From a virus: a stretch of 59,598 nucleotides of DNA. The notes below the pieces were generated by a model. The model was not told the origin of the DNA, searched no databases, and worked only from the letters and a program-made list of their open reading frames with translations. The stretch is taken from the IMG/VR virus record IMGVR_UViG_3300034782_000053. One strand, given 5' to 3'. Each line of letters starts with the position of its first letter. Position 1 is the stretch's first letter. Of this stretch, positions 16,702-36,377 are shown in pieces. A program made the position numbers and the translations under genes.

Positions 16702-16702
16702 C

Positions 16703-21361: not shown

Positions 21362-21364
21362 CTG

Positions 21365-22495
21365 CTAATCCTCGTCCTCCAGTATGACCCAGTCTTTGGT
21401 CCATTCCGGAGGCTCCTCGAACTCGAAAAGAACACCCTGTCTTTCCAGCAATTCATCCTCGCGACGCTCATCTGCGGACTTTTCTCTTACCAGCCACATC
21501 GCACGGATTGGGGAGTCGCCTTCATGTTCGACAATCGTCTCCGAAAGTTCCTTCGCCTCGGTGGCATGGAATAGCGTGTCATACGGAACGACCGTGTATT
21601 CAACGGGTGCGTCAGGCTTCCATCCCGCTGGGTCAATCTCGTAGAGCACCCCGTGCCAAGGATGGGGATCTTTGGCTGTCGCCTTCATGGGATAATCGGG
21701 CGGCTCTGGGTCTTCCAGCTCAGGCTCGTCAAGGCCAAGCTCATTCAGCACACCGCTGACGTTATCGGGCAGCTTCGCTTCTTCGATGCCCCACTCCTCG
21801 CCCCAGTCAACGACCTCCCCGTTGAATCCGACGGGGTCATATATCCTGAATTCAAGGGTGCGAGACCAGCACGCAACCTCGATGTCCGAGATGACAAGAC
21901 AGTAGCGAGCATCGAGGATGTTGTTCCATGACATGACATTCGGATCGTAGACGTCGCGATAGCCCTGATGACGAACCTCGACCTCCATGTGGTCTGGTTC
22001 GACGAGGTAGGGCTCAAGCATCTGCGCGACCTCGCCCGATTCACCTTTTCCGTAAAATCTCTTCCCTGCCTGCTCCTCAGCGATGCGATCCTTGAGCAGG
22101 AGGATGCCTTGCCTCACGTATTCGTCTTCGCCAAGGATCGCGTAGTGAGCTTCTTGTGCATCCCAGTCGGACTCGTCGGAATCGGTCCCCTCGAAGAACC
22201 GCTTGAAGAGAATCTTGGAGACGAGCTGTGCTGTTTGTTCAGCCGTGAGCTTGGTCCTCGGCCTCACCTTCTTGAGCGCGTCGAAAAAATCTTTCTCGTA
22301 CTTCTCTAGCGCCCTGACGATTCCAAGAACCGGCGAGGTTTCGTAGCCCATCTCTTCGAGGACGATAGCTTCTTCCAGATCGAAATCGCCCACGTCCAGG
22401 GTGCGATCCATGAGGTAGTGCACCTCGACGGGAACCACTTCCTCGTTGTCTTCGTCCCAAAGGTTCAGGGTCAGAGTTGCGTGGATGGGAGACAT
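21365..22495 (-). CDS. EMGY-domain family paralog 10 (376 aa, acidic)
   Basis: Internal ATG 22495 adjacent to the upstream stop. ...GDFDLEEAIVLEEMGYETSP. Confidence 0.8.
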   Translation of the reverse strand: MSPIHATLTLNLWDEDNEEVVPVEVHYLMDRTLDVGDFDLEEAIVLEEMGYETSPVLGIVRALEKYEKDFFDALKKVRPRTKLTAEQTAQLVSKILFKRFFEGTDSDESDWDAQEAHYAILGEDEYVRQGILLLKDRIAEEQAGKRFYGKGESGEVAQMLEPYLVEPDHMEVEVRHQGYRDVYDPNVMSWNNILDARYCLVISDIEVACWSRTLEFRIYDPVGFNGEVVDWGEEWGIEEAKLPDNVSGVLNELGLDEPELEDPEPPDYPMKATAKDPHPWHGVLYEIDPAGWKPDAPVEYTVVPYDTLFHATEAKELSETIVEHEGDSPIRAMWLVREKSADERREDELLERQGVLFEFEEPPEWTKDWVILEDED

Positions 22496-22497
22496 GG

Positions 22498-23541
22498 CTA
22501 TCCGCTCCTGATTTCGTAATAGTAGTACATGTCGTCGTAGTTGATGTCGTCTTCCTCGGGGTTCCACTCATCCGGGTCGATCGCCATCAGCTCGATCTCG
22601 GCCCCCTGAGACTTGTAGTCCTTGGCATCGCGCAGGGCGTCGAAAAGAAACTCCGCGTCCTCCTGGCCCCAACATGTCATCACGCGTTCTCCATCGACAA
22701 AAACAGAGAAGTAGCCCTTGTCCTCGTTGCAGTAGGGAAGCCACGGCTCTTCCAGGTCAAGGTAGTCTTCGAAGTCTGTATTCTCCCCCATGACTTCGAG
22801 CAGGTGAGCGGCGTTGTCGCTGAGGCTCATTGAGTTTTCGCACTCATCCACGTCCCAGCCAAGACCGACAAGATCGTTGAACCATCCTTCAAAGCAGACG
22901 TTGATGTCCTCTACTATCTCATCAGCGACATGAAGCTCAACCAGCAGCTCAGCCTTGATGTGTCCGGCGCCTTTTTCGTACTTCGGAGTTCCAAACTCCA
23001 ACCGGTAAAGGGTCGAGTTCGTCGCGGGGTCTAGCCTCTTTATGAAATCAATATCCTCCTGCTCGTAAGCGGACGATACCAGCTCCATCTCTCGATCGAG
23101 GTATCCTCTGGTTTGAAAAAACTCTGGCCACTTGTCCTTGATGATTTCGAGGATGACATCGTTATCCATCTCGCTACGAATATTGGTCATCGCAACTTCT
23201 TGAACCAAAAAATCCATCAACACCTCGGCAAAGTCTTCATCGTCGACCGGATACTCATCACCGAGTGTTTCAACACCCTGATCGTAGATTGCTTCCATAA
23301 ATGGCTCGAATCGACCTTGCTTTTTGAAGATGCTGACGATGCCGCCCTTCTCAACGCTGATTTTGAAACCGATACAGTCGGGAAGGTCGTAGCCCATCTC
23401 GTCGAGCACGATATGCTCTTCGACATCGATCTCCGGAGGAAGCTCGACGAGCATCTCACCTGTTCTGGTGTCGGCTGTGATGTGCACGATGACGTTGCCC
23501 TCGTCATACAGCTCGCAGGGTATTGTGACCTTCAGCGCCAT
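22498..23541 (-). CDS. EMGY-domain family paralog 11 (347 aa)
   Basis: MALKVTIPCELYDEGNVIVHI...EIDVEEHIVLDEMGYDLPDC. Close duplicate of paralog 12. Confidence 0.8.
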   Translation of the reverse strand: MALKVTIPCELYDEGNVIVHITADTRTGEMLVELPPEIDVEEHIVLDEMGYDLPDCIGFKISVEKGGIVSIFKKQGRFEPFMEAIYDQGVETLGDEYPVDDEDFAEVLMDFLVQEVAMTNIRSEMDNDVILEIIKDKWPEFFQTRGYLDREMELVSSAYEQEDIDFIKRLDPATNSTLYRLEFGTPKYEKGAGHIKAELLVELHVADEIVEDINVCFEGWFNDLVGLGWDVDECENSMSLSDNAAHLLEVMGENTDFEDYLDLEEPWLPYCNEDKGYFSVFVDGERVMTCWGQEDAEFLFDALRDAKDYKSQGAEIELMAIDPDEWNPEEDDINYDDMYYYYEIRSG

Positions 23542-23543
23542 GA

Positions 23544-24590
23544 CTACGACCTCATCGTGAAGTAGTTACCTGGATCGTCGAGGTCGATGTCGTCCTCTTC
23601 AGGATCTAGCTCGTCGTCGAGTTCCATCAAAGCAATGGAGTCATGCTTGTTCTGCACGTCCCTTGAATCTTCGAGGGCGTCAAAGAGGTTGTCAGCATCG
23701 CTGTAGTCGTCAAACGTCGCGACCCTTACATCGTTAACGAAAACCGAATATCGGCCCTCACCCTCATCGTAGGGGACATCAGGTTCGTAAAGACGAAACT
23801 CGGACTCGAAGTCCGTTCCTTCTCCCATAGTGTCGAGAAAATCTTCGGCCGTCGCCGTGGGCTCCCCGTGCTCGTCGCACTGCTCGACTTCCCAATCGAG
23901 CATTTCGAGGTCTACGTATCCGAGATAACAAACGTCCCACTCATCTACGGTCTCCTCACCGACTGTCAGTGTGACGAACCCCATGACCTTCGCATGTCCT
24001 GGGCCGTCCGAAGACGACGTCTCTTGTACGTTCACCTCGTATAGCGTCGACTGGGTGACCTCATCGAGCTTTTTGATGAAGTCATGCTCCTCATTCTCGT
24101 AGGCGAGCCGAACCAGCTCCATCTCCTTGTCATGGTAGGCGTTTGTCTTGAAGAACCCCTCCCAGTGTTCTTTGATGATCTCAACAACCAGCTCGAAGTC
24201 CATGTCCGTCTTGACGTCCGAGCCATGGGCCATCGCATCTACGAGAAGAATAGCTAATGCACCAGCGACAGCTTCTTCGTCGACCTCCCAGGTCTCCTTG
24301 TCTCCGATTGCCTGCGGTCCCTGCGCCTCGATGGCCTCGAAGAATGCCTGGAAGTACTCCTCTTTGGAAAAGATGTTTCTGAGACCATGACCCTTCTCGA
24401 CGTCCACCTTGAACTGGACGCAGTCGGGGAGATCGTAGCCCATCTCGGCGAGGGTGAGGTGCTCATCCACGTCGATCTCTTCTGGCAGTTCGACGAGAAA
24501 TGAGTTGCTGTAGGGGTCATCGAGAGAGACAATCGCTTCGACCTCGCCTTCTTCGACCAGCTCACAGGGAATCTTGACTCTCAGCGCCAT
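23544..24590 (-). CDS. EMGY-domain family paralog 12 (348 aa)
   Basis: MALRVKIPCELVEEGEVEAIV...EIDVDEHLTLAEMGYDLPDC. Confidence 0.8.
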   Translation of the reverse strand: MALRVKIPCELVEEGEVEAIVSLDDPYSNSFLVELPEEIDVDEHLTLAEMGYDLPDCVQFKVDVEKGHGLRNIFSKEEYFQAFFEAIEAQGPQAIGDKETWEVDEEAVAGALAILLVDAMAHGSDVKTDMDFELVVEIIKEHWEGFFKTNAYHDKEMELVRLAYENEEHDFIKKLDEVTQSTLYEVNVQETSSSDGPGHAKVMGFVTLTVGEETVDEWDVCYLGYVDLEMLDWEVEQCDEHGEPTATAEDFLDTMGEGTDFESEFRLYEPDVPYDEGEGRYSVFVNDVRVATFDDYSDADNLFDALEDSRDVQNKHDSIALMELDDELDPEEDDIDLDDPGNYFTMRS

Positions 24591-24602
24591 GGTTCTTCTC
24601 CC

Positions 24603-25328
24603 TCAGTCAGAAAAATCTTCTTCCAGTTGCTGCTCTTCGAGCAGCTCGATGAGCCGGCTCGCCTGCCAGGCGTTTTCTCTAGTCCCTGCTTTCGTTCGAT
24701 CTTTACCCTGAAAATCAGCCTTTTCCTGAACTGCCCCGACACACTTTCCCAGTACATCCTTTATGCGCCTCTCATATTTTGACTGTGCGCCGCGAGGAAA
24801 ATACCAGGGGCGAATATGAAAAAGACGGGCCATTCTGATGAGGTCGAGTGCCGCGTTACAGGCCGCTTTCGCTGCCCTATCGTCGTCTTTGGATCCTCGT
24901 CTCCAAGCATCTGCCGCCGCATCATCGCATGCTATGACGAGATCGGACTCAAGCTCGTCAATCTCTTCCTCGTCAACATGTTCGCCGCTTAGAACAGCCT
25001 TAACCATCCCAATAATTTGCTGGGGCTCATCGCGCTTTGGATGAACCGCTGCCCAGCAAGGGATGACTCGCTCCAATTGCTCCACTCCAATCCGAAGCAA
25101 CAAATCAGCATCGAGCCCAGAATCAATGAGGTTAATGACGAGGACCGCTGGCTGGTCTTGCATGACACGCTTGAGGTTGAGGCAAGGATGGACATTGTAG
25201 CCCATCTCTTCGAGGACAATGGCCTCTTCCTCATCAAAATCAAGGATGGTGATATCGAGGCCGCGAGTGATCTCGAACTCTTTGGACCTTCCCTCGTAGT
25301 CGCAGAATATTTCAAGGACCACGCTCAT
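24603..25328 (-). CDS. EMGY-domain family paralog 13 (241 aa)
   Basis: MSVVLEIFCDYEGRSKEFEITRGLDITILDFDEEEAIVLEEMGYNVHPC. Confidence 0.8.
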   Translation of the reverse strand: MSVVLEIFCDYEGRSKEFEITRGLDITILDFDEEEAIVLEEMGYNVHPCLNLKRVMQDQPAVLVINLIDSGLDADLLLRIGVEQLERVIPCWAAVHPKRDEPQQIIGMVKAVLSGEHVDEEEIDELESDLVIACDDAAADAWRRGSKDDDRAAKAACNAALDLIRMARLFHIRPWYFPRGAQSKYERRIKDVLGKCVGAVQEKADFQGKDRTKAGTRENAWQASRLIELLEEQQLEEDFSD

Positions 25329-25330
25329 GC

Positions 25331-26410
25331 TCAGCCCTCAAAATCCTCAGGACGATCTTGCCAGTTCTCTTCCAGGGGGCGCCACTCCAGATAGATGGGA
25401 TCGGGCTCTTCGACCTCCTGGGTAGCGCCACCGTTGAAAAGCCTGTACTGACGTCTCAGCGCGGCACGGTCTTTGGCCTCTTCGATGTCCTCGGCCTCTT
25501 CAGAAGGAGTACGACGCCGCACAAGAGACACCTCTACACTGTCTCCTGTTTCTCCTATCATCTTTTGCGCCAGTGCAGCCGCTTCGCTTGCGTCGCTTTC
25601 TCTGGCGTAAATGACGACCTCGACCTCAACCTCGGGTTCTTCGAGCTTCCCCTTGGTCGGATGCCAATAGGTCATCTCTTCGTACATCACCCCGAATAGC
25701 TCGTCGCTGTCTTCGTCTTCTGGCCTGGGAACGTAAAGATCGTCTTCGTCTGGCCCCTCTGGCTCTTCATCTTCAAGACCAAGCGCTTCAAGAACTTCTG
25801 TGAGCCCTTCGACCATTTCAGGGCCAATCTCAAGCCCAGCTTCTCTGAGGTCTGTCAGATCCGAATCAAAATACTTGTAGCTGTACGACGACCTCTCAAC
25901 AGCGTGCTCCCACTGAGCAATTTCCTCTCCGTCGATCATCAGCCGATGTGTCTCGTATCGAACCACTCGCGGATACCCGAATTGGTCTTCGCTGAGATGC
26001 GACTCTACCGTTATCTCTGGCATATCATTCAGGGACCACGGCATCTCCTTGATGACGCTGGCGACCGCAACGGCGTCGTCCGTGTATTCCTTGTTCATGT
26101 AGTGCTGAAGAGCGAGGACAAGGGCACTCTTGACATCATCGATGTCGAACGGCCACAGGCTTCGTCCGACGTAATAATCGTACTGGGTGCGTTTTCCCTG
26201 AAGCGCTTCGATGAAATCATCGAGCTGCCCTTCTTCCTTGAGGGCCTGGAGAACGAGGTCCCACGACTTAACAATCCAATAGTCGAGTCCCAGCTCATAG
26301 CCCATCTCGGCAAGGACAGCTTGCTCCTCCGGGTCATAGCCAGGGACTTCGAGACTTCCGTCGTCATGAATTATCGCGTCGAAGTCGCCGATTTTTATTT
26401 CGTAGGCCAT
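25331..26410 (-). CDS. EMGY-domain family paralog 14 (359 aa, acidic C-terminal)
   Basis: ATG 26410 (TGATG overlap). MAYEIKIGDFDAIIHDDGSLEVPGYDPEEQAVLAEMGYELG. Confidence 0.8.
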   Translation of the reverse strand: MAYEIKIGDFDAIIHDDGSLEVPGYDPEEQAVLAEMGYELGLDYWIVKSWDLVLQALKEEGQLDDFIEALQGKRTQYDYYVGRSLWPFDIDDVKSALVLALQHYMNKEYTDDAVAVASVIKEMPWSLNDMPEITVESHLSEDQFGYPRVVRYETHRLMIDGEEIAQWEHAVERSSYSYKYFDSDLTDLREAGLEIGPEMVEGLTEVLEALGLEDEEPEGPDEDDLYVPRPEDEDSDELFGVMYEEMTYWHPTKGKLEEPEVEVEVVIYARESDASEAAALAQKMIGETGDSVEVSLVRRRTPSEEAEDIEEAKDRAALRRQYRLFNGGATQEVEEPDPIYLEWRPLEENWQDRPEDFEG

Positions 26411-27177
26411 CACAGCTCATCCTTATGCGCTTGGGTTACACGGGAAGTAATGCGAAGGAGATCAGAGACTACAAAGAACACGGCCACCGATAACTCATCA
26501 CCCCCCAGCGCTTCCTGACGACCGGAATACAGCGCGACATGAAGAGCTTCGGTTATAGACCGCCTCGCGTTTTTGTAGAAGGCCTCGACGTTATAGGCCC
26601 CAGCCCAAAGATCCCCAACACAGCGCAGCATGTAATCCAGGGACGATACAGCGTTATTCTCCACCACCTCATTGTCACGGATACGAGCGATGTCGTAGTA
26701 CGCCGCAATCGTGTGATGCAGGTCATCGAAGTCCTCGTCGTCATCCGGGTCCATATACCTGTGCTCTTTGGTCACCATGTCCAGGAACGACTCGGACCTG
26801 TCAACAAATACTTCAGGCGTTATCTCGAAATCATCGAAGCTTCCGCTCCCCTTGGAACGATAGGTGGAGACAGTAAAGGTGTAGTTCTCTGGCGGCAGTG
26901 CTGGGATTGACCAGGAACGCGCCAGCTCAATCAGGAAACGCGCGACGACCTCCGGAGACCAGATTTCCGAGGTCGTAAACGCCTCAATGAAGTGCCGATC
27001 GCCAAGCATCCCCACGAACCTCGAACACTGGCTCCCTGGTTCGTAGCCCATCTCGACCAGGACTCGGTCTTCCGCGATTTCCTCATCTCCATGATCGGCG
27101 AAAACGTAGATGTCCCTTGCACCCTCAACATCGACCCTGTGGACCTCATCACCATCCTGGAGATAGAAGGTGTCCAT
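26410..27177 (-). CDS. EMGY-domain family paralog 15 (255 aa)
   Basis: ...FADHGDEEIAEDRVLVEMGYEPGSQC. Confidence 0.8.
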   Translation of the reverse strand: MDTFYLQDGDEVHRVDVEGARDIYVFADHGDEEIAEDRVLVEMGYEPGSQCSRFVGMLGDRHFIEAFTTSEIWSPEVVARFLIELARSWSIPALPPENYTFTVSTYRSKGSGSFDDFEITPEVFVDRSESFLDMVTKEHRYMDPDDDEDFDDLHHTIAAYYDIARIRDNEVVENNAVSSLDYMLRCVGDLWAGAYNVEAFYKNARRSITEALHVALYSGRQEALGGDELSVAVFFVVSDLLRITSRVTQAHKDEL

Positions 27178-27179
27178 GG

Positions 27180-28025
27180 CTATGAATGCCTCCGTTCAAG
27201 AACCTGGACGAACTGACCGATGAGCTGCCGGCGCGTCTCATAGGAAAAGTCAGCCGCTTCTGACTTCGTGGCTCCGTCCAGTGCGGCCTCGTAGATGGCG
27301 GCGAGGCCGATATACTTCTGGATCTCCTCGAAATTTGAGTGTGCTCTTTCGAGTCGGGCATCGTTGTCATTTCTGATCATCTGACCAAGGGCGAAGAGCG
27401 CACTGGCGGCATAGAACCTGGCCTTGAGGACAAATTGTGGGTAGCGTGAGTAGTCCGTCTTCCAAGGAATATCGTTCTTCTCTGATTGCTCAAAGTTTGC
27501 GTCGCTGACCGCGCGCCCCATAAACCTGTTGTGCTTTTCGAGGTCTCTCTTCGCCTTTCTGTCGTCGGTTCCGAGGTCTGGATCGAAATCGTACAGCTCT
27601 CCGTAGATCTCCTTGAGCCCCTCAACCCACTCCACTGGGTCGACCTGGTAGTAATCCGGCTCATCTTCGCCACCGCGGAAGTAAGAGGCTATTGGGTGCG
27701 CGACGACAAACGGTGGGCTTCCGATCTTCTTGAGAATGGTGAGCGCTCGCTTCACCCAAATGAAGCCGGTTTCTGCCTTGATGTCGTACCAAGGCCCCGA
27801 CGTCCAGTATTCGTTGTCCTCCCACCTGAATAGCGCGAACAGTGTTTTAAACGGATTGGTCTGCCACTTGAGATAGGTTTTTGCACAGAGGTCAGGCTCG
27901 TAACCCATCTCGACGAGAACAAGCGCGTCTTCGATGTCGAACTCCTCAAAGACGAGGTCTCCAGATCCTGTCACCTCCACGTTCTGAATCTCGCCGTCGC
28001 ACTCTATCTTCAGCAGAATGCCCAT
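27180..28025 (-). CDS. EMGY-domain family paralog 16 (281 aa)
   Basis: MGILLKIECDGEIQNVEVTGSGDLVFEEFDIEDALVLVEMGYEPDLC. Confidence 0.8.
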   Translation of the reverse strand: MGILLKIECDGEIQNVEVTGSGDLVFEEFDIEDALVLVEMGYEPDLCAKTYLKWQTNPFKTLFALFRWEDNEYWTSGPWYDIKAETGFIWVKRALTILKKIGSPPFVVAHPIASYFRGGEDEPDYYQVDPVEWVEGLKEIYGELYDFDPDLGTDDRKAKRDLEKHNRFMGRAVSDANFEQSEKNDIPWKTDYSRYPQFVLKARFYAASALFALGQMIRNDNDARLERAHSNFEEIQKYIGLAAIYEAALDGATKSEAADFSYETRRQLIGQFVQVLERRHS

Positions 28026-28789
28026 CAGCCGTGCCTTTCGAGAACCCTGAGCGCTGCGAGCGCCAGCTTCTGATTCACCTCATCGATCTCCTCCTGGATC
28101 ATCCAGACTGACTCGGTGAATATTTTGTGATCTGATTCAAATGGGTGGCGATGCGATGCGACCGTTGGATAGTGGATGACTATGGATTGCATTGCTGCTT
28201 TTGCCACCTCGCAGGGGAGCTGTAGCGGAGTTTGAAGACCGCCCACCATTTCGATCTCGTTGACATACTCGGCAATCACCGATGCACAACCGAGAACTGC
28301 ATCGAGCGTCCTCTCACCTGCAAAAGGTGGGCGCCAGTTCGACCCCGCAAAGCTCTCTCGCCTCTTGTTGACATAGGCGTTCCAGCAATCAAATACCTGC
28401 TGTTTCGCCGAGTAGACTCGCTTGAGCGGCATTCCCCTCTTCGCGGACCAAAAACGTCGACACGCTCCGAGGAGAGATTTCATTTGCTTGACGCATCCGA
28501 TGCTCTGGTTGAGCAACGCCTCGTTTCGCGCTAATGCCTCGGCAGCCCATTGACAGGTGACGAAGCCGAGGAGGTTTGTCGGAATGATGTCAGAGCGACA
28601 GAGAAAATCGATCGGCGCCCTCTCCCACTCCCTCAGTATTTCAAGGCACAGAGGCGTCTCGTAGCCCATCTCTTCAAGGACAACATCTTGCTCGATGTCG
28701 TAGTCGACAAAAACCATCTCACCATCGCTCGTAATTTCGATGGTGGCGAGACCATCCTCTTCGCAGGGGAGCTGCAGGAAGATACTCAT
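28025..28789 (-). CDS. EMGY-domain family paralog 17 (254 aa)
   Basis: MSIFLQLPCEEDGLATIEITSDGEMVFVDYDIEQDVVLEEMGYETPLC. Confidence 0.8.
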   Translation of the reverse strand: MSIFLQLPCEEDGLATIEITSDGEMVFVDYDIEQDVVLEEMGYETPLCLEILREWERAPIDFLCRSDIIPTNLLGFVTCQWAAEALARNEALLNQSIGCVKQMKSLLGACRRFWSAKRGMPLKRVYSAKQQVFDCWNAYVNKRRESFAGSNWRPPFAGERTLDAVLGCASVIAEYVNEIEMVGGLQTPLQLPCEVAKAAMQSIVIHYPTVASHRHPFESDHKIFTESVWMIQEEIDEVNQKLALAALRVLERHG

Positions 28790-29526
28790 TCCTCATCCTC
28801 CTGGTCAGAAAAATAGTCGAGAATGTAGTCGAGCTGCCATTGGTACTCGTTGCCGTAAGCTTTCTGGTCTCGCTCAGCCATACCCTGCTGCGTCGCTGAC
28901 TGCCTTGTATAAGACGCTGTGTCCTGCGAAAACTTCCGCACAAGCACGGGAGCTGGCCCGGCGAGCTGTGTATGTCCGTAGAGGTGAGCATGAAGAGCCT
29001 TCATCGCCTCTCGGACGGCAGTGGCGATCAGCTCATCGCTGTAGGCGATTCTGAAAGCCTTGTCTGCTTCAGAAACATCCTTGCGATGCTCGGCGAGTTT
29101 TACCTCCCCCCTTGCTCTTTCAAGCAAGCGATAAGCCTGTGAAGCCCTCGTTATATTTCCGGACATCATAATGATGTCTCTCAAAGCGAGTCTTTTTTCA
29201 GGAGAGTCCGAAAAATAGTCTTTTCCGTGATACCTCCCGAATCTCTCGATCGCATGGTCCGCTATGCCAATCGCCAACAGCACCCTATCCGCCTCAGGAA
29301 TGAGCAACGCCTCATTACTGAGAAGAGCCTTGACGGGCTCATCCTCGAACTCTCGGACGAGACTAAGGCAGTCCGACGCTGGATACCCCATCTCTTCGAG
29401 CGCGATGTCTTCTTCGAGGTCGTAGTCGAGGGTCAAATCGCCGTCATCGTCGACTTGGGCATCGACGATTTGGTCGTCGCATCGGGCAGCAAGTACGAAG
29501 GACACGAGTTCACCCCCATCGCTCAC
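28786..29526 (-). CDS. EMGY-domain family paralog 18 (246 aa)
   Basis: GTG start 29526 in a GTGA overlap with the VWA gene stop. ...LDYDLEEDIALEEMGYPASDC. Confidence 0.75.
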   Translation of the reverse strand: MSDGGELVSFVLAARCDDQIVDAQVDDDGDLTLDYDLEEDIALEEMGYPASDCLSLVREFEDEPVKALLSNEALLIPEADRVLLAIGIADHAIERFGRYHGKDYFSDSPEKRLALRDIIMMSGNITRASQAYRLLERARGEVKLAEHRKDVSEADKAFRIAYSDELIATAVREAMKALHAHLYGHTQLAGPAPVLVRKFSQDTASYTRQSATQQGMAERDQKAYGNEYQWQLDYILDYFSDQEDEE

Positions 29527-31256
29527 TTGCCAGAGGTGATGTAGATGACATCACCGAACGGTGGTATTCCGCCCCACCTCTCCATCTGCGCCTCATCGCT
29601 TCCGACGATACCGATAACAACCCGCATGTTGGGCGGCGGAGAGTCGGGCCAGAGAGTGCCACCGTCCGTCAGGACTACCATGATGTTCGGGCGGGGCTGC
29701 GAATGATAGGCAGCGTTCATCCCAACTGTCAGGTCTGTTCCGCCGCCGATCTTTGCCTCACTCAGATACTTCTGAATGTCAGACGGGTTAAAAATCCGAC
29801 CAGTCCACGAGACCGTCGTGTCCGTCGCGAAGACACTGACACCTATCGTCGAACCGAACTGCCTGACAATTTCTGCAACTTCTCCCATCGCCTGTTCGAG
29901 GAGCGTGTAATTCCCCTTCGCCTTGGCGCTGCCATCGTTGAACGCGGCGAACATCGAGGCGGAGACATCGATGATGATTGCCACCTCAGGCACAGGGTGA
30001 ACGAGGCCTGGGAGTAGAATGTCTTTCTGGTGCCATTGGCGCCGGCTCACGCGACGGCGAGAGAACTCGAAAGAACCTGCCACAAAGTTGATAGCGTTCG
30101 AGACAGCGCTTCGGAGCTGCTGCTGCCAATTCACCGCAGATGGCGAAAGCTCTTCTTCGGCCCACTGAACTATTGTCGAGCCCACGCCCGTTCCACGACC
30201 CGTAGCTGACTCCTCGATGACCTTGTCGGCCGTTTTTTTTCGGATGAAGTCCTCTTGCGATCGATCAACGAAGTCGTCGGGCTCATCCTCCCAGGGAGCC
30301 GGGATACCAGTTGCGGATGAACCACAATCGCCCTCTCCGACATGCGGCGTGGAGCTAGGCTCACCACCTGTGGTCTGCCCCTGCTCGACCTGCTCTCCCT
30401 CGTCGTACTTGTCTTCAGCGCTCTTACCTTCGCCTTCGCCTTCACCTTCGCCTTCTTCGAAATCACCTTCGCCCTCTACCGGCTGACCTCTCTCTCCTAC
30501 GCCTTCTTCTCCTTCTTGAGGCAGGCGAGGATCGTAAATGACATAAGGAGGTTTCGTCCCTGGAGGCCGCTCTCCTGTCCAGGGTTCTTCGTACTCATAG
30601 ACAATAACCGGATCCGGCGGAGGACCAACTGGCGGCGGCTCGTCTTCTTCTCCTTCTTGCGGCGGCTCGGGAGGCGGTTCTTTCCCAGGCTTCTTCACCT
30701 TGATGATGGTTCGCTTGTACACCTTGACGTCGCCGTCAGGCGTCTCACCGAAGACATCGCCCTTTGGAGCTTCGAGGAGCATTTCGTAATACTCCTCCGC
30801 CAGCAGCCCCTTTTCGAAGTTGAAGCTCTCTGGAGTGATCGGCTCGAATCCAGGAATCTCTTTGAGCCGTTTCACGAGCGTATCGTCAGAATGGATCTCC
30901 GCGTCTGCCGCGAAGTTCCAGACCTTCGCCAGATCGCGGGGCACGTTCAGTTTTCGGGCGCGCTCTCCGTGACGACGGAGCAGGTGCCACAGCTCATGCT
31001 CCATGACAGCCGCGCCAGCTTCGACACCTGCCCTGTCCAAAAACTCATCGTTGAAGTACATCCGCCAGCTCGAATCGACAGCCGCTGTCGGGATGCTTTT
31101 GTCGTGCACCATGCGAAGCGTCATCGCTGCTGTCGCGAGATAGGGCCGCTGCGATGCCCTGAGCAGAAAAAGGCGCGCTGCCCGCACCAGCTCATATGGG
31201 TCACCAGGGTTTCGCCCCCTTCGAGGCCTTCCTGGGTTGATCATTCGAATCGTCAT
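29523..31256 (-). CDS. VWA-domain protein with N-terminal HExxH metallopeptidase-like domain (DUF2201-type MoxR partner) and a Pro/Glu-rich linker
   Basis: MEHELWHLLRRH (HExxH). C-terminal VWA with MIDAS IIIDVSASM (DxSxS). Low-complexity linker PPPEPPQEGEEDEPPP...VIVYEYEEPW...GEGEGEGEG. Translationally coupled on both sides. Confidence 0.8.
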   Translation of the reverse strand: MTIRMINPGRPRRGRNPGDPYELVRAARLFLLRASQRPYLATAAMTLRMVHDKSIPTAAVDSSWRMYFNDEFLDRAGVEAGAAVMEHELWHLLRRHGERARKLNVPRDLAKVWNFAADAEIHSDDTLVKRLKEIPGFEPITPESFNFEKGLLAEEYYEMLLEAPKGDVFGETPDGDVKVYKRTIIKVKKPGKEPPPEPPQEGEEDEPPPVGPPPDPVIVYEYEEPWTGERPPGTKPPYVIYDPRLPQEGEEGVGERGQPVEGEGDFEEGEGEGEGEGKSAEDKYDEGEQVEQGQTTGGEPSSTPHVGEGDCGSSATGIPAPWEDEPDDFVDRSQEDFIRKKTADKVIEESATGRGTGVGSTIVQWAEEELSPSAVNWQQQLRSAVSNAINFVAGSFEFSRRRVSRRQWHQKDILLPGLVHPVPEVAIIIDVSASMFAAFNDGSAKAKGNYTLLEQAMGEVAEIVRQFGSTIGVSVFATDTTVSWTGRIFNPSDIQKYLSEAKIGGGTDLTVGMNAAYHSQPRPNIMVVLTDGGTLWPDSPPPNMRVVIGIVGSDEAQMERWGGIPPFGDVIYITSGK

Positions 31257-31993
31257 GGTGACGTCTCCTCATGGTATCGCTCGATGAAGTCGAGCGTGTG
31301 ATCGAGCTGCCACTTCTTCTCTTCCATCTCCGCCTTGTCAGGATCTTCGTTCTCCTGAATGGCCTTGTTCCTCACGGCCTCTTGTGCTTGCGAGCTGACC
31401 TCGAAGATGTACTTGAAAAAGTTCTTTTCGGCCTTTGCCCGAACCTTTGGTAGCGAGATGGCAACGAGCCACTCTGCAGCGTTGATGAGCTGAACGGCAC
31501 TTTTATTGGCGTGGTACGCAGCAGGTGGATGACCGACATACAGCCCTTGATCTCGAAGGTTTTTCCGAACCTTGTCGAGCATCATCGTTGTAAAACGACC
31601 CTCCAGCGAACCCTCTACCGCTCTCACGGCACTGTAAAACCAGGGGTGCTCAGCCTCCGCGAACATTTCAAAGTGCTGCTGCTGCCCGCGTTCAGAGAAT
31701 ACCCAATCGATGTGATGGACATAGTCAATCCCTAGCTGCACCCAGGCCTCGTATGGGAGAATGCCGACTCCGTAATCTTCCGTTGCCCAAAGCCCCCTCT
31801 GAAGCATCATGAGGACGTAGAGAGGCTTGGTGGGGTAGAAGTTGATAGCCTGGTAGCAGGGGCTACCGGAGTAACCCATCTCGACGAGAACGGCCTCCTC
31901 GTCGTAGTCAAAATCGAAGATGGTTAATCCACCGCGGTCTACTTCGACCTCGTGTACTCCACCTCCGCAGCGTATCTCCGTGACAATGGCCAT
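31253..31993 (-). CDS. EMGY-domain family paralog 19 (246 aa)
   Basis: MAIVTEIRCGGGVHEVEVDRGGLTIFDFDYDEEAVLVEMGYSGSPC. Sits between the VWA gene and the AAA+ ATPase genes. Confidence 0.8.
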   Translation of the reverse strand: MAIVTEIRCGGGVHEVEVDRGGLTIFDFDYDEEAVLVEMGYSGSPCYQAINFYPTKPLYVLMMLQRGLWATEDYGVGILPYEAWVQLGIDYVHHIDWVFSERGQQQHFEMFAEAEHPWFYSAVRAVEGSLEGRFTTMMLDKVRKNLRDQGLYVGHPPAAYHANKSAVQLINAAEWLVAISLPKVRAKAEKNFFKYIFEVSSQAQEAVRNKAIQENEDPDKAEMEEKKWQLDHTLDFIERYHEETSP

Positions 31994-31995
31994 CC

Positions 31996-33459
31996 CTACT
32001 TCTTTTTCTTCGCCAGACCCTTCAAGACGCCGACCTTTTTCATCATGGGGAAGAACTTCTTCACCAGGCGGCTCGGCGGCTTCGTGCCCTTGATCTGTGG
32101 ATAGCGATCACTCGTAGCGATCTTGGTCAGATCGAGGACCGTCGTAAACATTGCGTCGACCTTGTTTGTCTCGTCGACGACGTAACCGACGACATCCCAC
32201 GCCTGAAGGAAACGCTCTTCTGAGGGCTTTCGCTGTACCGCCGCGACGAGCGACTGACCGACAGCGTAGATCTGATCGCTGCGGGCGTTCTTCACGTCCC
32301 AGATGGTTGGATCGAGCATGACCTCTTCTGCGTCTGGCAGGTCTCTCTCCTTGATCCAGTTCATGAACTCGCCGCCTGGACCTTCACCCACGCACCCCTT
32401 GACAAGCAGCGCCTGAACGTCCATCGGAGCCCAGACAGCACGTCCTGCCCCGAGGGCTTCTGCCGCCATGTCCCAGGTTCGCGGGCTCGGCCACGCAAGG
32501 CCGCGCTCTGTCTGCGTCTTCGGCATCATCATGAAAAGCTCTTCACGACGACGAAGGAAGGCCGCAATATCCTCCTTGGCGCTCATGGCCTCTGAAGTCT
32601 TTCGCCAGTCCTTCGGAAGTGAGAACAAGCGAGGCCTGGCCCACCCGAGCATCAGACCGAGACCCCAGATGATCCCAGAGGGCTCTGGCCACTTGATGTG
32701 GAGCATCCGGTTTGCCGCTGGCGGCGGCAAGTCGATGGCTCCAGCACCCTCTCCAGACGGATTCGCGGCGGCGACGACACTGCATGCCTCTCCACGGAGC
32801 GGCCCGCTCTTCGGATCGAAGTTCAGCTCCCCAGCGATCTTCTCGCGCACCACCCGCAGCATAGCGGCATGAACGAGTGGGCTCATGCTCGTGAACTCGT
32901 CCAGGAACAGAACCGAGCGCTTACCCTGATCGGCCCTGGCCCTGATCTCCTGAGCCCAAACTGGTGGGACCAGCGAGCCATCGAGCTTCATGATGCCGCC
33001 GATGTCTGCCGGGTCTTTCGTCGAGCCAATAACGGTGAAGACCTCGGCATCCATCGCTTCGCCGAGAGCTTCCAGCCAGGTCGTTTTACCGATACCAGGA
33101 GCGCCCCACAAGATGGTTGGGACACCGGACTGGACGGCGATTGCAGCAGCCTGCTGTGCGATCTGAGCCTCACTCAGCTCATCGGGATTGCGAAGAATAC
33201 GGGAGCGCTTGACGAAGTAGATGCCGGCTCCAACACCAACGCCGATCCCAACCCAAAACCACCAGGGGCGTCCAGCAAATTGTCCGTCCTCAGGATTTTC
33301 TGTTCCGAGGTTACTACACCCTGCGCAGCTCGCAATCGGAGAGTCGTCGTCGTATATGGGTACGATAGCCCCCATCTGCGGGGGTATGACCTGCTGGGCA
33401 GTGAGCGGAGGGCGAACTGCTACGTAGCGCCCATCATCGTTGTCGTCTCGATAGTTCAT
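31996..33459 (-). CDS. MoxR-like AAA+ ATPase (AAA_5 type) with N-terminal TM segment
   Basis: Walker A LWGAPGIGKTT, Walker B VLFLDEF, sensor AAAN. N-terminal hydrophobic WWFWVGIGVGVGAGIYFV. ATGA coupling to the upstream ATPase. Confidence 0.85.
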   Translation of the reverse strand: MNYRDDNDDGRYVAVRPPLTAQQVIPPQMGAIVPIYDDDSPIASCAGCSNLGTENPEDGQFAGRPWWFWVGIGVGVGAGIYFVKRSRILRNPDELSEAQIAQQAAAIAVQSGVPTILWGAPGIGKTTWLEALGEAMDAEVFTVIGSTKDPADIGGIMKLDGSLVPPVWAQEIRARADQGKRSVLFLDEFTSMSPLVHAAMLRVVREKIAGELNFDPKSGPLRGEACSVVAAANPSGEGAGAIDLPPPAANRMLHIKWPEPSGIIWGLGLMLGWARPRLFSLPKDWRKTSEAMSAKEDIAAFLRRREELFMMMPKTQTERGLAWPSPRTWDMAAEALGAGRAVWAPMDVQALLVKGCVGEGPGGEFMNWIKERDLPDAEEVMLDPTIWDVKNARSDQIYAVGQSLVAAVQRKPSEERFLQAWDVVGYVVDETNKVDAMFTTVLDLTKIATSDRYPQIKGTKPPSRLVKKFFPMMKKVGVLKGLAKKKK

Positions 33460-35036
33460 CGTAGACCTCCGAAGACTCGAACACCCTCGACGCGATACTC
33501 ATCGAGCATTTCGTCTTCGGGAATCTCCGCGTCCTTGATGGCTGCCACGAAGCGCTTGTCTTTGGTCAAGGCCATCAGCCTGTCGGCCGCGAGCGCCAGC
33601 ACCTCTGGCCTGTCAGACTTCGCCCTGGCGTGCTCCATGAACTCCCAAGCCCGCTCCCAGGCATCCCGCGACGGCGACTTCTTGACCTCGTTTACGACAG
33701 CGTTTGCGGCGGCATAGAGGACGTCAGGACGACCTAGCTGCACCTCATATTTCTTGGGAGCTGCGAGAATGTCTCGTCCATCAACAGCGTCTCGGTCGTT
33801 GAGCCAATCGAAGAACTTCTTGGCTGGCAGCATCCCGACCGCACCAGAGACAAGCTTGAAGATGACCTGGGGAGGAGCGTTGACGACTCGGGCGGCGCCC
33901 AGAGCGTCCGCAGCCATCTCCCAGCTCCTGGGGCTCGGCCATGCCTCGCCTCTTGCTGCCGATGTCGCAGGCAGTTCCAGCATGTACCTCTGCTGATAGG
34001 CGACGAAAGCCGCGACGTCTTCCTCTGCGCTGACAGCCTCACGAGTCCTCTTCCAGTCTCTCGGGAGTGCCGGGAGCTGAGGCTTTGGCCACTCCGAAGA
34101 AAGAAGCCCCACTCCCCACTCCACAACAGAAGGCGGCACCCACTTGATATGAATGAGCCGGTTAGCGGCCGGAGGAGGAAGCTCCATCGAGCCTGCACCT
34201 TCCTCGGGGGCGTTCGCGGCGGCGACAACTGAGACATACCTGTCAGTGGGGTCGAAGTTCAGCTCTCCGGCGATCTTTTCCCGAACGACTCGAAGCAGCG
34301 CGGCGTGCACGAGCGGGCTCATGCTCGTGAACTCGTCCAGGAACAGAACCGAGCGCTTTCGCTGGTCCGAACGCTTGCGAATCTTCTGAGCCCACATGGG
34401 CGGGATCGTTCTGCCTTCGAGATTCATGATGCCGCCAATGTCGGCTGGATCCTTGGTTGAGCCGATGACCGTAAAGACCTCGGCGTTCATCGCTTCGCCG
34501 AGGGCTTCCAGCCAGCTCGACTTCCCTATTCCAGGAGGCCCCCAAAGGATGGTGGGAAGCCCTGCCTGCACTGCGAGTGCAGCGGCCTGCTGAGCCGCCT
34601 CGGAATCGGTGACGTCCCTGGGGTTTTCGAAGATGCCGCTTTTTGTAAGCAAGTAGAGCGCACCGCCCACACCAAGGCCGATTCCAACCCAGAACAGCCA
34701 GGAGTGTCCTGTCCTTTCCTCGACTCCGACGTTAGAGAGAGCCGAGTTCTGACATCCGACGCAGCATTCTTCGATCGATGGATCGCAGCTCCCAACGAGC
34801 TGAGACCTCGTCCTCTGGACGATTCCAGGTCCAAATCGATACACCTTCGCACCGGAGGGCTGGATAGCCCCCATCCCGTCAAAGAGCTGAGCTTCGGAGG
34901 GCTGGATGGCTCCCATGCCGCTGAAGAGCTGAGCCTCTGAGGGCTGAATCGCGCCAAGGCCCTGGCTGAAGATCTGAGCACGCGACAGGTTTATGAGACC
35001 CAGCGGCTGTCGACCTTTTGTGTTGTACTCGTACAT
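33456..35036 (-). CDS. MoxR-like AAA+ ATPase paralog with N-terminal MYEY tag, 15-aa x3 tandem repeat and TM segment
   Basis: Starts MYEYNTKGRQ. Repeat EAQLF.GMGAIQPS x3. Walker A LWGPPGIGKSS, Walker B VLFLDEF. GGAGGA SD. Confidence 0.85.
   Translation of the reverse strand: MYEYNTKGRQPLGLINLSRAQIFSQGLGAIQPSEAQLFSGMGAIQPSEAQLFDGMGAIQPSGAKVYRFGPGIVQRTRSQLVGSCDPSIEECCVGCQNSALSNVGVEERTGHSWLFWVGIGLGVGGALYLLTKSGIFENPRDVTDSEAAQQAAALAVQAGLPTILWGPPGIGKSSWLEALGEAMNAEVFTVIGSTKDPADIGGIMNLEGRTIPPMWAQKIRKRSDQRKRSVLFLDEFTSMSPLVHAALLRVVREKIAGELNFDPTDRYVSVVAAANAPEEGAGSMELPPPAANRLIHIKWVPPSVVEWGVGLLSSEWPKPQLPALPRDWKRTREAVSAEEDVAAFVAYQQRYMLELPATSAARGEAWPSPRSWEMAADALGAARVVNAPPQVIFKLVSGAVGMLPAKKFFDWLNDRDAVDGRDILAAPKKYEVQLGRPDVLYAAANAVVNEVKKSPSRDAWERAWEFMEHARAKSDRPEVLALAADRLMALTKDKRFVAAIKDAEIPEDEMLDEYRVEGVRVFGGLR
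34850..34990. repeat. 45-bp tandem repeat x3 inside the AAA+ ATPase gene (encodes EAQLF.GMGAIQPS x3)
   Basis: gagggctggatagcccccatcccgtcaaagagctgagcttcg / gagggctggatggctcccatgccgctgaagagctgagcctct / gagggctgaatcgcgccaaggccctggctgaagatctgagc. Confidence 0.8.
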
Positions 35037-35047: not shown

Positions 35048-35587
35048 TTAATACTGCTCAAACTCCGGGAAGCCTGGGAGCAGCTCGGCTACCGGGTCCA
35101 TGAAGTTGATGAGTTCGATCTCGTTCGAGATGGCAAAATCAACGATGTCAGGGAAATACTCGTCCAGCTCAGCATCTTCGTAGAGCTGCTCGCGCGCCCC
35201 CGGTTCGAGCGGAATCTCAAAGACGACTCCATTTACCCAACCCTCGAAGTAGTGATCGTACCAGTTGGCGTCGGGACCGCTCGCGTTACCGATGCGAGTG
35301 ACGGTTCTGTTTATCATCTTCGGGAGATTACGCCGCGGTACAACGAGCATCGGACGCGTAAAGTCGAAGGCAGGTGGCAACAGCCCCATTTCGACGCAGA
35401 AGGAGTAGGGGTTTATCGACCACTTGCGATAAAGCTGAAGGCACTCGCTTGCTGGATACCCCATCTCTGCGAGCGTCACATCGTGATCAAGGTCGTAATC
35501 GAGGAACTCTGGCTCGCCGTCTTCTCCAGGACGTACCAGAACAGTCTTTCCGTCACACTCGAACTCTATGGCGCGCATCTTCCACAT
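35048..35587 (-). CDS. EMGY-domain family paralog 20 (179 aa)
   Basis: ...AIEFECDGKTVLVRPGEDGEPEFLDYDLDHDVTLAEMGYPASEC. Confidence 0.8.
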   Translation of the reverse strand: MWKMRAIEFECDGKTVLVRPGEDGEPEFLDYDLDHDVTLAEMGYPASECLQLYRKWSINPYSFCVEMGLLPPAFDFTRPMLVVPRRNLPKMINRTVTRIGNASGPDANWYDHYFEGWVNGVVFEIPLEPGAREQLYEDAELDEYFPDIVDFAISNEIELINFMDPVAELLPGFPEFEQY

Positions 35588-35589
35588 GG

Positions 35590-36117
35590 TTACCAGCTAC
35601 CGGACACCGTCAACGCAGGTGCGTCATCAGCGAACTCCACCACAAAAACACCTATCGACACGGCGTATGCACAAATATCTATCAGCTTCTTGCTGTAACC
35701 AACTTTCTTCCTTACCCCTCGAAGCTCTTCAAAGAATCCATCTTCATCTGGGATACTTACGAGATACCCTCTTTGAATTGTTTGCACCTCAAACCAGGTG
35801 TCATAGTTCAGCGCTTTACGGTCGTTCTCTTCTCTTTCGAGCGTAAACCGATCCGACGGTTTTATGCTTTCGATTGAAACCGTTAGAACAGCGTAAGAGG
35901 CCTCCATACTTTCTGGAAGAAACCCGTTGTCTCTGTAGAAAGAATAAGGCTCGTTAACGAGCTGATGCCACAGCGTGTAGCACTCCGTCGGGTCGTAACC
36001 CATCTCGACGAGCGTGATGTCGTGCTCAATATCGTAGTTGAGAAACTCAGGACCCTCAGGCGTCAGCCGGATACGAATGGGGCGTCCCTCACATTCGACT
36101 TCAATGACCGGGGTCAT
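35590..36117 (-). CDS. EMGY-domain family paralog 21 (175 aa)
   Basis: Internal ATG 36117 adjacent to the upstream stop. MTPVIEVECEGRPIRIRLTPEGPEFLNYDIEHDITLVEMGYDPTEC. Confidence 0.8.
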   Translation of the reverse strand: MTPVIEVECEGRPIRIRLTPEGPEFLNYDIEHDITLVEMGYDPTECYTLWHQLVNEPYSFYRDNGFLPESMEASYAVLTVSIESIKPSDRFTLEREENDRKALNYDTWFEVQTIQRGYLVSIPDEDGFFEELRGVRKKVGYSKKLIDICAYAVSIGVFVVEFADDAPALTVSGSW

Positions 36118-36377
36118 CTCGACCTCAGGATGTAGCCGATGACCATCCCCGTGATGGCTCCCCACGCCACGAGATCGCATCGTCTCCGCACGTACCACGG
36201 GCGCTGGCTTTCTCGCACCCGGGCCAGCTCTTGATTTGCGACTGCCTGCGCCGGATGCTGATGCAGCGCCGCCTCTTGCTGACCTATGACGACAGCGTAT
36301 TGCTCCACGAACGGTTCGAGCGTCGCCGGGTCTGAGAGCGGCATCTGGTTCGGCATATTGGCGTCAGGGCTCTGCAT
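36114..36377 (-). CDS. small protein with C-terminal hydrophobic anchor (87 aa)
   Basis: ATG 36377. C-terminal LVAWGAITGMVIGYILRSR. Confidence 0.55.
   Translation of the reverse strand: MQSPDANMPNQMPLSDPATLEPFVEQYAVVIGQQEAALHQHPAQAVANQELARVRESQRPWYVRRRCDLVAWGAITGMVIGYILRSR

Follow-up and report, generated by a model that had tools for sequence, protein, structure and literature searches.

Jumbo phages have previously been described to encode a MoxR-type AAA+ ATPase together with a metallopeptidase fused to a von Willebrand factor A (VWA) domain, and virion assembly with proteolytic processing has been proposed as the role of this pair (Iyer et al. 2021, Viruses, PMC7824862). In another virus, the Acidianus two-tailed virus, the MoxR protein p618 and the VWA protein p892 act as tail-assembly chaperones (cited in PMC7824862 and PMC7911831). 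The current study concerns a locus within a viral DNA stretch of 59,598 nucleotides (IMG/VR record IMGVR_UViG_3300034782_000053, hereafter the window), in which two ATPases of this kind, ATPase-A and ATPase-B, and a 577-amino acid (aa) partner combining a zincin-type peptidase domain with a VWA domain (the zincin-VWA protein) are encoded among two large protein families. One of these, the EMGY family, is defined by a common N-terminal module (N-module); the other is a block of predicted tail-anchored membrane proteins, many of which begin with a MYEY tag. The combination of a MoxR ATPase and a zincin-VWA protein is among the most widespread phage gene pairs without a known client, and the pair itself is not new. 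What is new, judging from the sequences, is the membrane-anchored variant. To our knowledge, it is the first whose ATPase carries both a tag and a membrane helix common to a defined set of co-encoded proteins. We propose that the module is a membrane-tethered phage MoxR/zincin-VWA chaperone, which is integrated into the MYEY membrane-protein set of its element, and we give this proposal an even chance.

The identity of the components as two MoxR-type ATPases and a zinc-peptidase/VWA partner is close to certain. Both ATPases exceed the Pfam AAA_5 cut-off of 22 bits (ATPase-A, 7e-9 and 36.3 bits; ATPase-B, 3e-7 and 31.0 bits) and both match phrog_1297, described as 'ATPase' (1.7e-42 and 9.2e-43, respectively). 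The MoxR-specific family AAA_3 falls below its cut-off of 27 bits for both (24.0 and 22.2 bits), as does the bpMoxR model (18.4 bits against a cut-off of 27). The motifs AAANP..EGAG...LPPPAANR and WPSPR(S/T)W, found in both proteins, correspond to the MoxR signature (family consensus ATQNPxExEGTYxLPEAQxDRF; SPR), and JGI (Joint Genome Institute) annotation names the protein a 'MoxR-like ATPase'. The two paralogs are 48% identical overall with nearly identical AAA+ cores, and each retains all of the residues for ATP binding and hydrolysis. Among the 43 sequences of the ATPase alignment (A2), G119, G122, G124, K125, D187, E188, N233, R251, and R327 (ATPase-B numbering) are invariant. When the profile of this alignment was compared with solved structures, the best match was to the AAA modules of Midasin (1.8e-29), while the MoxR structure 2r44 was matched at 1.2e-8; a single-sequence search of the PDB sequences with ATPase-B yielded no match, and only the family profile gave matches. 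From their sequences, both ATPases are thus filed as MoxR/AAA_5-type (COG0714).

The zincin-VWA protein contains DUF2201_N (4.4e-25; 89.2 bits, cut-off 23.2) followed, in N-to-C order, by the VWA-like DUF2201 (1.9e-11; 44.6 bits, cut-off 26.4), both past the gathering score and together the architecture of COG3864 ('predicted metal-dependent peptidase'), and it further matches VWA_2 (4e-6) and phrog_1314 (5e-36). Residues H87, E88, and H91 of its HExxH motif, along with D118, E120, and H122 of a second conserved motif, are invariant in the clade alignment of 13 sequences. In the wider, mostly bacterial family, H87 and H91 remain invariant and E88 is often replaced (consensus HHVCH); among viral homologs, HExxH is present in 65 of 66. 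The metal ion-dependent adhesion site, or MIDAS (DxSxS...T...D), is complete, with D430, S432, S434, T507, and D531 invariant in 51 sequences. An AlphaFold2 model is confident at residues 20–168 and 310–400 and moderate for the VWA domain. A disordered insert of 133 residues (E28, P23, G22), the length of which differs among homologs, splits the peptidase domain in two. Within this insert, the sequence VYEYEE (residues 219–224, 30585–30602) resembles the MYEY tag; it is specific to the protein of the window and the likeness may be due to chance. A hydropathy flag at residues 412–440 was rejected as a membrane helix, being a buried VWA beta-strand with the DVSAS motif. Comparison of the clade profile with PDB sequences returned only noise (E>0.2), and no solved relative was found for the peptidase half. 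The start of the 577-aa reading frame, which overlaps the upstream stop codon, is backed by an M-x-IRVINP N-terminus conserved in homologs; the JGI gene call of 529 aa begins 48 codons too late. In a related element on a 270-kb contig (L010), the partner is encoded by adjacent genes as a 214-aa peptidase half (DUF2201_N) and a 373-aa protein that opens with the IRVINP N-terminus of the family (L010:13161–14926), so that, judging from the sequences, the zincin-VWA protein is here either split or duplicated in part. An earlier note, written from the letters of the window before any database search, had recognized two paralogous AAA_5/MoxR-type ATPases by their Walker motifs, a protein joining HExxH and DUF2201_N with a VWA domain bearing a DVSAS MIDAS, and the pairing of the two as a MoxR-VWA system; it had called for profile searches of the three proteins, and the AAA_5, phrog_1297, DUF2201_N/DUF2201, and phrog_1314 matches, together with the motif locations, agree with this identification.

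The window's ATPases depart from their soluble relatives in an N-terminal extension of 90–140 aa that the latter do not have. Because of this extension, the Walker A motif is found at residues 109–167 in the window's clade versus approximately residue 33 in soluble viral relatives (median length 363 aa). The A-type extension starts with M-Y-E-Y and contains repeats of the form G-x-G-x-I-Q-P-S-x-A-Q-x-F, which as G(L/M)GAIQPSxAxxF are also found in the A-type ATPases of two related elements (L001 and L004), while the B-type extension contains the motif DDGRYV. Both types have a CxGC motif and a hydrophobic glycine-zipper helix, RPWW(F/H)W..G.G.G, which is followed by basic residues and is kept in approximately 25 long-form homologs. 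The earlier note had assigned each ATPase an N-terminal transmembrane segment, and a helix is indeed predicted in both; it sits behind a head of 60–110 aa and hence in the N-terminal region, not at the extreme N-terminus. The ATPases are likely to be tethered to the membrane by this predicted helix, and the basic residues behind that of ATPase-B would fit an N-out/C-in topology with a cytoplasmic AAA+ domain. In classical MoxR-VWA pairs, any membrane anchor is usually found on the VWA partner, as for BatA/BatB. In a neighbour-joining tree built without bootstrap, the extended ATPases form one clade separate from the soluble ones, and the A-type is split from the B-type across five elements. 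Since the split spans five elements, the duplication is ancient, with both copies retained, and the tree places it before the divergence of the elements.

Eight related elements could be compared (the window, L001, L004, L007, L009, L010, L011, and L180), on contigs of 40 to 270 kb. The element of the window itself corresponds to JGI 3300042731 (83 kb) and is also present on contigs of 113 and 165.6 kb. Other contigs of the lineage include JGI 3300035191 Ga0373587_0000002 and contig_26207 and contig_132536 of ENA ERZ25039554, and long-form ATPases make up roughly 50 clusters. In the five elements found through the zincin-VWA protein, identity of this protein is 42–55%. All eight elements encode, in one order, MYEY/tail-anchored membrane proteins, one or two extended ATPases, zero to two N-module paralogs, the zincin-VWA protein, and an array of 200–400 aa proteins with the common N-module. 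In the sample studied, the extended ATPase clade and the two families are always together and never apart.

It is with the membrane block that the ATPases have the most in common. Between 36381 and 56233, the window encodes approximately 20 predicted single-pass membrane proteins, often starting with M(x)YEYxxxG(L/M/P)G and conserved in order across the elements. Many have a glycine-zipper helix followed by a basic and then acidic tail, such as KRGESEEE. Across seven elements, an M(x)YE-type tag occurs in 27 of 101 proteins encoded upstream of the ATPases and in four of 12 ATPases, compared to two of 109 downstream proteins. Of the 27 upstream proteins with the tag, 24 also contain a hydrophobic helix. 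Tail-anchored proteins and ATPases have in common the MYEY tag (A-type), a similar glycine-rich helix, and in some cases the CxGC motif, the latter being found in those tail-anchored proteins that start with MYQxSTxGxGCLGC. A more direct connection is provided by a small tail-anchored protein, which is encoded by a separate gene in the window (36114–36377) and in L004 (5934–6149). In L010 and L011 (10001–10360 in both), the head of this protein is fused to the first, A-type ATPase, where it reads AEVGRQEQAL. In alignment A6, VVIGQQEAALHQHP of the window's small protein and AVEVGRQEAALHEHP of the L004 small protein stand against RLAAEVGRQEQALYTNP of the L011 ATPase N-terminus, from which we conclude that a gene fusion or fission has joined or separated the small membrane protein and the ATPase head. 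A hidden Markov model (HMM) of the ATPase N-termini, contaminated by some soluble sequences, was also searched against all neighbouring open reading frames (ORFs) and found membrane-block proteins only (E 1e-4 to 1, above shuffled decoys); this link is weak and suggestive only. Taken together, these likenesses suggest that the ATPases are probably functionally integrated with the MYEY membrane set, and a link in function to the two families is plausible, with better support for this set than for the EMGY proteins.

The EMGY family flanks the module as well. The window encodes 21 N-module paralogs with an invariant L-x-E-M-G-Y; EMGY genes lie at 12179–29526 and 35048–36117. An exhaustive profile search of 1.84 billion representatives recovered 147 N-module proteins, with three very long repetitive matches set aside as spurious, while a word-indexed homolog search with an EMGY paralog returned only itself and one 82% relative; the family is rare and restricted. 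The N-module lies at or near the N-terminus of proteins of 61–447 aa, most of them 130–380 aa. AlphaFold2 predicts that of the 246-aa paralog (residues 1–66) with a predicted local distance difference test (pLDDT) score of 86–97 as three beta-strands and three short helices, the EMGY motif ending the first helix. Among 143 representatives (alignment A7), 31 have ankyrin repeats, 12 Imm5_like, four DUF5983, and one Imm5. Most EMGY paralogs of the window matched no Pfam family, and the 246-aa paralog matched neither Pfam nor PHROG. A sub-threshold Imm5 match was obtained for the paralog at 24603–25328 (E=3.7e-4; 21.1 bits, cut-off 25), and weak DUF5983 matches for the EMGY-type paralogs at 35590–36117 and 35048–35587 (E=0.0061 and 0.074, respectively). 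In E. coli, DUF5983 is reported as the downstream partner of CbtA toxins (PMC10790755), and Imm5 and ankyrin domains are classic immunity-protein families of poly-immunity loci (PMC3482391). The N-module looks like a portable handle placed on protein-binding or immunity-type domains, in a manner reminiscent of such loci, and the array accordingly resembles a battery of binder or immunity-type proteins with one common handle. We rejected the possibility that the array is a recent tandem amplification, since its members are orthologs in fixed order across the elements (e.g., those with ...DRPEDFEG C-termini), and the array is therefore ancient. The array is interrupted at 15313–15735 by a 140-aa protein that lacks the N-module and has a hydrophobic helix at its C-terminus.

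The long ORFs from 12 kb to 56 kb of the window all lie on the minus strand, and the genes of the module are transcribed in the order ATPase-A, ATPase-B, EMGY paralog, zincin-VWA. GGAGG Shine-Dalgarno sites precede both ATPase genes. The junction between them is a 4-nucleotide (nt) ATGA overlap, a 2-nt gap separates ATPase-B from the EMGY paralog, and 4-nt overlaps link the latter to the zincin-VWA gene and this gene in turn to the next EMGY gene (GTGA). The earlier note had set the ATPases next to the zincin-VWA gene; they do share one locus and direction of transcription, with an EMGY paralog in between that places the zincin-VWA gene 740 nt downstream of ATPase-B. Its description of a module embedded in a translationally coupled EMGY operon agrees with these junctions and with the flanking paralogs, and yet such embedding is confined to the window, L004, and L007, with one EMGY paralog between the ATPase-B and zincin-VWA genes in L004 and two in L007. 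The module had also been placed upstream of the tail-anchored array, whereas on the minus strand it is the array (36.4–56 kb) that is transcribed first. Long antisense ORFs overlap the ATPase genes (32698–33717, plus strand, 339 aa) and the zincin-VWA gene (30342–31301, plus strand, 319 aa); because the minus-strand genes have homologs, these are most likely artefacts of GC-rich sequence. The coordinates of the locus are collected in Table 1.

Table 1. Features of the ATPase/zincin-VWA locus, in order of transcription (positions refer to the window)
Feature	Position	Strand	Basis or remark
Small tail-anchored protein, 87 aa; head motif (A)VEVGRQEAAL	36114..36377	(-)	alignment A6
Two EMGY-type paralogs, 179 and 175 aa, directly before ATPase-A	35048..36117	(-)	
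ATPase-A, 526 aa, MYEY-tagged, predicted membrane-anchored MoxR/AAA_5-type AAA+ ATPase	33456..35036	(-)	ORF, Pfam, PHROG, motifs
MYEY tag, N-terminus of ATPase-A	35025..35036	(-)	motif location
Three G(L/M)GAIQPSxAxxF repeats, ATPase-A head	34839..34961	(-)	motif location
CVGC (CxGC) motif, ATPase-A head	34752..34763	(-)	motif location
Predicted glycine-zipper transmembrane helix, ATPase-A, WLFWVGIGLGVGGALYLL, residues 113-130	34647..34700	(-)	hydropathy scan
AAA+ core, ATPase-A, Walker A to Walker B	34329..34541	(-)	motif location
Walker A GPPGIGKS, ATPase-A	34518-34541	(-)	
Walker B VLFLDEF, ATPase-A	34329-34349	(-)	
ATPase-B, 487 aa, ancient paralog of ATPase-A, DDGRYV N-terminal motif, predicted membrane-anchored	31996..33459	(-)	ORF, Pfam, PHROG
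CxGC motif, ATPase-B	33316-33327	(-)	
Predicted glycine-zipper transmembrane helix, ATPase-B, WWFWVGIGVGVGAGIYFV, residues 66-83, then KRSR	33211..33264	(-)	hydropathy scan
AAA+ core, ATPase-B	32473..33105	(-)	motif location
Walker A GAPGIGKT, ATPase-B	33082-33105	(-)	
Walker B VLFLDEF, ATPase-B	32893-32913	(-)	
Sensor 1 VVAAAN, ATPase-B	32761-32778	(-)	
Arg finger PPPAANR, ATPase-B	32707-32727	(-)	
Sensor 2 WPSPRTW, ATPase-B	32473-32493	(-)	
EMGY-family paralog, 246 aa, between ATPase-B and zincin-VWA genes	31253..31993	(-)	ORF
Zincin (HExxH)-VWA protein, 577 aa, DUF2201_N + DUF2201	29523..31256	(-)	ORF, Pfam, PHROG
HELWH (HExxH) zinc-binding/catalytic motif, residues 87-91	30984..30998	(-)	motif location; activity predicted only
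Second conserved motif AADAEIHSD	30885-30911	(-)	
Disordered E/P/G-rich insert, residues 170-302, splits peptidase-domain halves	30351..30749	(-)	pLDDT below 50
MIDAS residues span, VWA domain	29658..29969	(-)	motif location
DVSAS, residues 430-434	29955-29969	(-)	
GGGTD, residues 504-508	29733-29747	(-)	
LTDGG, residues 529-533	29658-29672	(-)	
First member of downstream EMGY array; GTG start overlaps zincin-VWA stop by 4 nt	28786..29526	(-)	

The soluble form of the pair provides the background against which this variant must be viewed. More than 515 viral contigs of IMG/VR encode a related ATPase in its soluble version, with identities to the window ATPase of at most 35%. At 65 of the 80 such loci fetched, the same strand encodes a DUF2201 protein no more than 3 kb away, and this rises to 46 of 47 among viral loci with at least 3 kb of flank on both sides. 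A metagenome scan with the ATPase profile served as a second control set; among the matches listed, which include one long-form locus, 79 loci were taken and the partner lies within 3 kb in 26 of 28 that were testable. The EMGY N-module was found at none of the 159 control loci (80 viral and 79 metagenomic, all with soluble-clade ATPases). The pair is also present in the jumbo phage Phosso, next to replication genes, as well as in a phage-like contig and in a Streptomyces chromosome without either family, and N4-like phages encode a related ATPase and a zincin-only gene in their early region. In BFVD, full-length structural matches come from the phages Zuri, PBS1, and Ruegeria V13. In the Streptomyces sp. 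(GCA_042669245.1, L015:3129–8416), the soluble MoxR and DUF2201 genes close a four-gene operon. In this chromosomal form of the module, the first two genes encode proteins (378 and 580 aa) for which Pfam gave no match.

Based upon these features, a working model can be outlined. ATPase-A and ATPase-B would assemble into a ring, which probably contains both, at the cytoplasmic side of the membrane, with the shared helix holding this ring among the MYEY-tagged proteins. The soluble zincin-VWA protein would then dock on the ring, following the example of NorD with NorQ, CbbO with CbbQ, ViaA with RavA, and the MIDAS domain with the Rea1 ring, while the MIDAS metal site would grip an acidic residue of a co-encoded client. 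ATP hydrolysis would remodel or assemble the client, which may also be trimmed by the fused zinc peptidase. The clients would most likely be proteins of the same element. The MYEY membrane set is the first candidate, because of the common tag and the fusion of the small protein to the ATPase. The EMGY-module proteins are the second, because of their operon coupling and common N-terminal handle; this handle, in which a Glu-x-Gly loop is conserved, would be well suited to docking at one shared site. Even so, we regard the EMGY proteins as doubtful clients. The earlier note had suggested that the peptidase is a maturation protease, which is conceivable and at present rather unlikely.

Several considerations weigh against this model. 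Firstly, the ATPase helix is a prediction and only moderately hydrophobic (Kyte-Doolittle mean of about 1.5). Secondly, cytoplasmic AAA+ domains would put the tagged heads on the outside without any signal peptide, which is awkward for the largest tagged proteins with heads of up to 455–615 aa. Thirdly, because hundreds of viral contigs encode the tightly linked pair and neither family, the basic job of the generic pair cannot depend on the EMGY and MYEY families. Lastly, all eight elements are related and collinear over the whole 17–22 kb fetched, and the conserved adjacency therefore counts as a single evolutionary event; it could simply be inherited gene order.

This last point leads to the strongest competing explanation, in which the pair does here what it does in other phages, for example in host takeover or in assembling and processing virions, and its clients have no relation to either family, with the membrane anchor merely placing it where that job is done. 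The ubiquity of the pair in viral contigs without the families, its position beside replication genes in Phosso, and its early-region location in N4-like phages are all in accordance with this explanation, and collinearity leaves the adjacency in the eight elements with little independent weight. What it accounts for less readily is the extension, which has its tag, CxGC motif, and helix type in common with the co-encoded membrane proteins and is never apart from the families in our sample, nor does it predict that a small membrane protein should be fused to the ATPase in two elements. We consider inherited order to be a serious possibility that falls short of probable. The suggestion in the earlier note that the machine is dedicated to the families thus survives in part. 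In its favor are the layout common to eight of eight elements, the restriction of the extended clade to loci with the families, the MYEY tag, CxGC motif, and helix, and the fusion; on the other side, the generic pair is common without the families, synteny amounts to one event, and the ties are to the MYEY set rather than to the EMGY family that the note emphasized. Occurrence of the same module in unrelated genomes lacking the families, which the note had named as evidence to the contrary, is indeed what is found for the generic pair.

A more ambitious version of the membrane-tethered chaperone model would unite all of the parts, such that the A/B ring, the zincin-VWA protein, and the approximately 20 MYEY and 20 EMGY proteins constitute one hitherto undescribed membrane-embedded apparatus, in a new lineage of giant elements. 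The MYEY peptide and the EMGY N-module would both be new docking or sorting signals read by the MIDAS and trimmed by the peptidase, and the apparatus might be either a virus-built membrane structure with its assembly motor or a split FtsH-like degradation or export machine supplied by an array of ankyrin/Imm5-type adaptors. As a whole, this conjunction is improbable.

Less probable still is a split FtsH-like membrane AAA+ metalloprotease, for which the EMGY proteins would be substrate adaptors instead of clients. Their variable binder domains (ankyrin, Imm5-like, and other helical repeats) would capture proteins of the host or of competitors, and the N-module would dock on the MIDAS to deliver these targets for unfolding and cleavage, much like the Ank-PRANC adaptors of poxviruses. 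A membrane-anchored AAA+ protein and an HExxH peptidase do make up the parts list of FtsH. The consistently N-terminal position of the N-module on proteins of 130–380 aa, the ankyrin, Imm5_like, and DUF5983 domains counted among the representatives elsewhere, the sub-threshold Imm5 match of one window paralog, and the ancient, ordered, and individually conserved array would likewise be expected of adaptors. However, most paralogs of the window match no Pfam family, and the known role of MoxR ATPases is that of chaperones that remodel their clients, not of motors for proteases. The remaining possibility is that the locus serves defence or conflict as a 'ternary' MoxR-vWA system, with the arrays as diversified effectors or a poly-immunity locus; this was rejected as very improbable. 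In its favor, known conflict systems include MoxR-vWA cores to which variable proteins are linked (Kaur et al. 2020, PMC7159879), and Imm5 and ankyrin domains are typical of poly-immunity loci (PMC3482391). Against it, the defining third component was not found (no VMAP, iSTAND, FtsH, or beta-propeller component by Pfam of the scanned proteins and annotations of neighbouring genes), PADLOC gave no significant match, the bpMoxR score is sub-threshold, the array members are conserved orthologs in fixed order rather than hypervariable, and both core genes have their nearest relatives in phage families.

Most likely, the locus comes from a phage of very large size or from some other large mobile element, the host of which uses Shine-Dalgarno sites. 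Directly upstream of the membrane block (57533–59191 and further upstream, L018:599–8461) are genes for a methyltransferase, two GT2 glycosyltransferases, a radical S-adenosylmethionine enzyme, and a 552-aa sulfotransferase-like protein, and this cluster of modification enzymes could glycosylate or sulfate the membrane proteins or a surface structure. The downstream flank encodes NUDIX, DUF4026_C, and DUF5662/phrog_20637 proteins, a phage-type methyltransferase, an N6/N4 DNA methylase, and an 845-aa orphan. The latter (246–2783) recurs without any sequence change on at least six of the contigs of the window's element and has no match in Pfam, PHROG, NCBIfam, or a tblastn search of phages. PHROG matches were obtained for two flanking genes and all three genes of the module. 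For 10 other large proteins of the window, Pfam and PHROG gave almost no matches, and the window has no tRNA, Rfam, or NCBIfam match. Capsid, terminase, and portal genes were not seen in the 60-kb window or approximately 20 kb of flanks. A scan of IMG/VR with patterns of the zincin-VWA clade found no close relative, and tblastn against phages gave at most 27% identity and no clade member in cultured phages. In GTDB genomes, the single match to this clade is a 2.4-kb contig in a metagenome-assembled genome (MAG) of the Gemmatimonadaceae, which is uninformative on the host, and one ATPase homolog lies on a 4.7-kb contig labelled as a Planctomycetota MAG. The locus belongs to a conserved core of at least 20 kb, where comparable, from a rare lineage of large elements on contigs of 83–270 kb. 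Most genes of this lineage are without a known family, and it is absent from IMG/VR by the clade-pattern scan and all but missing from GTDB. The function of the module has so far been guessed, and the membrane-anchored variant nominates both concrete candidate partners and a membrane location, and if true, its link to the families could reveal a general role of phage MoxR-VWA pairs.

When the locus is compared with known systems, the likeness to FtsH is a matter of functional speculation only: both would combine a membrane anchor, an AAA+ ring, and an HExxH peptidase, whereas FtsH belongs to another AAA+ clade, has a peptidase of family M41, and is a single polypeptide. The p618/p892 proteins of the Acidianus two-tailed virus are similar in being a viral MoxR-VWA pair implicated in the assembly of a virion structure, and are set apart, by description rather than by sequence, in that they belong to an archaeal virus and have neither a peptidase domain nor a membrane anchor. 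Rea1/Midasin provides the AAA modules that are the best solved-structure match of the ATPase profile, and its MIDAS, which grips a Glu on the small ubiquitin-like (UBL) domain common to its clients Rsa4 and Ytm1, offers an analogy that would fit the EMGY N-module; it differs as a single eukaryotic polypeptide with six AAA modules. Like RavA-ViaA, NorQ-NorD, CbbQ-CbbO, and CoxD-CoxE (Snider & Houry 2006; Wong & Houry 2012), the window has a gene for an AAA_5/MoxR-type ATPase beside that for a MIDAS VWA partner, with the same presumed logic of a ring and a client-gripping adaptor, although these systems employ soluble ATPases, have no zincin fused to the VWA domain, and act on metabolic enzymes. 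Closest of all is the phage MoxR/metallopeptidase-vWA pair (PMC7824862; phrog_1297 and phrog_1314), which consists of the same two genes in the same order with near-obligatory adjacency and has the same N-terminal zincin (DUF2201_N) fused to VWA with its HExxH intact. From this pair, the locus of the window is distinguished by the duplication of its ATPase into A and B, the 90–140 aa head with a predicted membrane helix, a family paralog between the genes, and two large flanking families that are its own.

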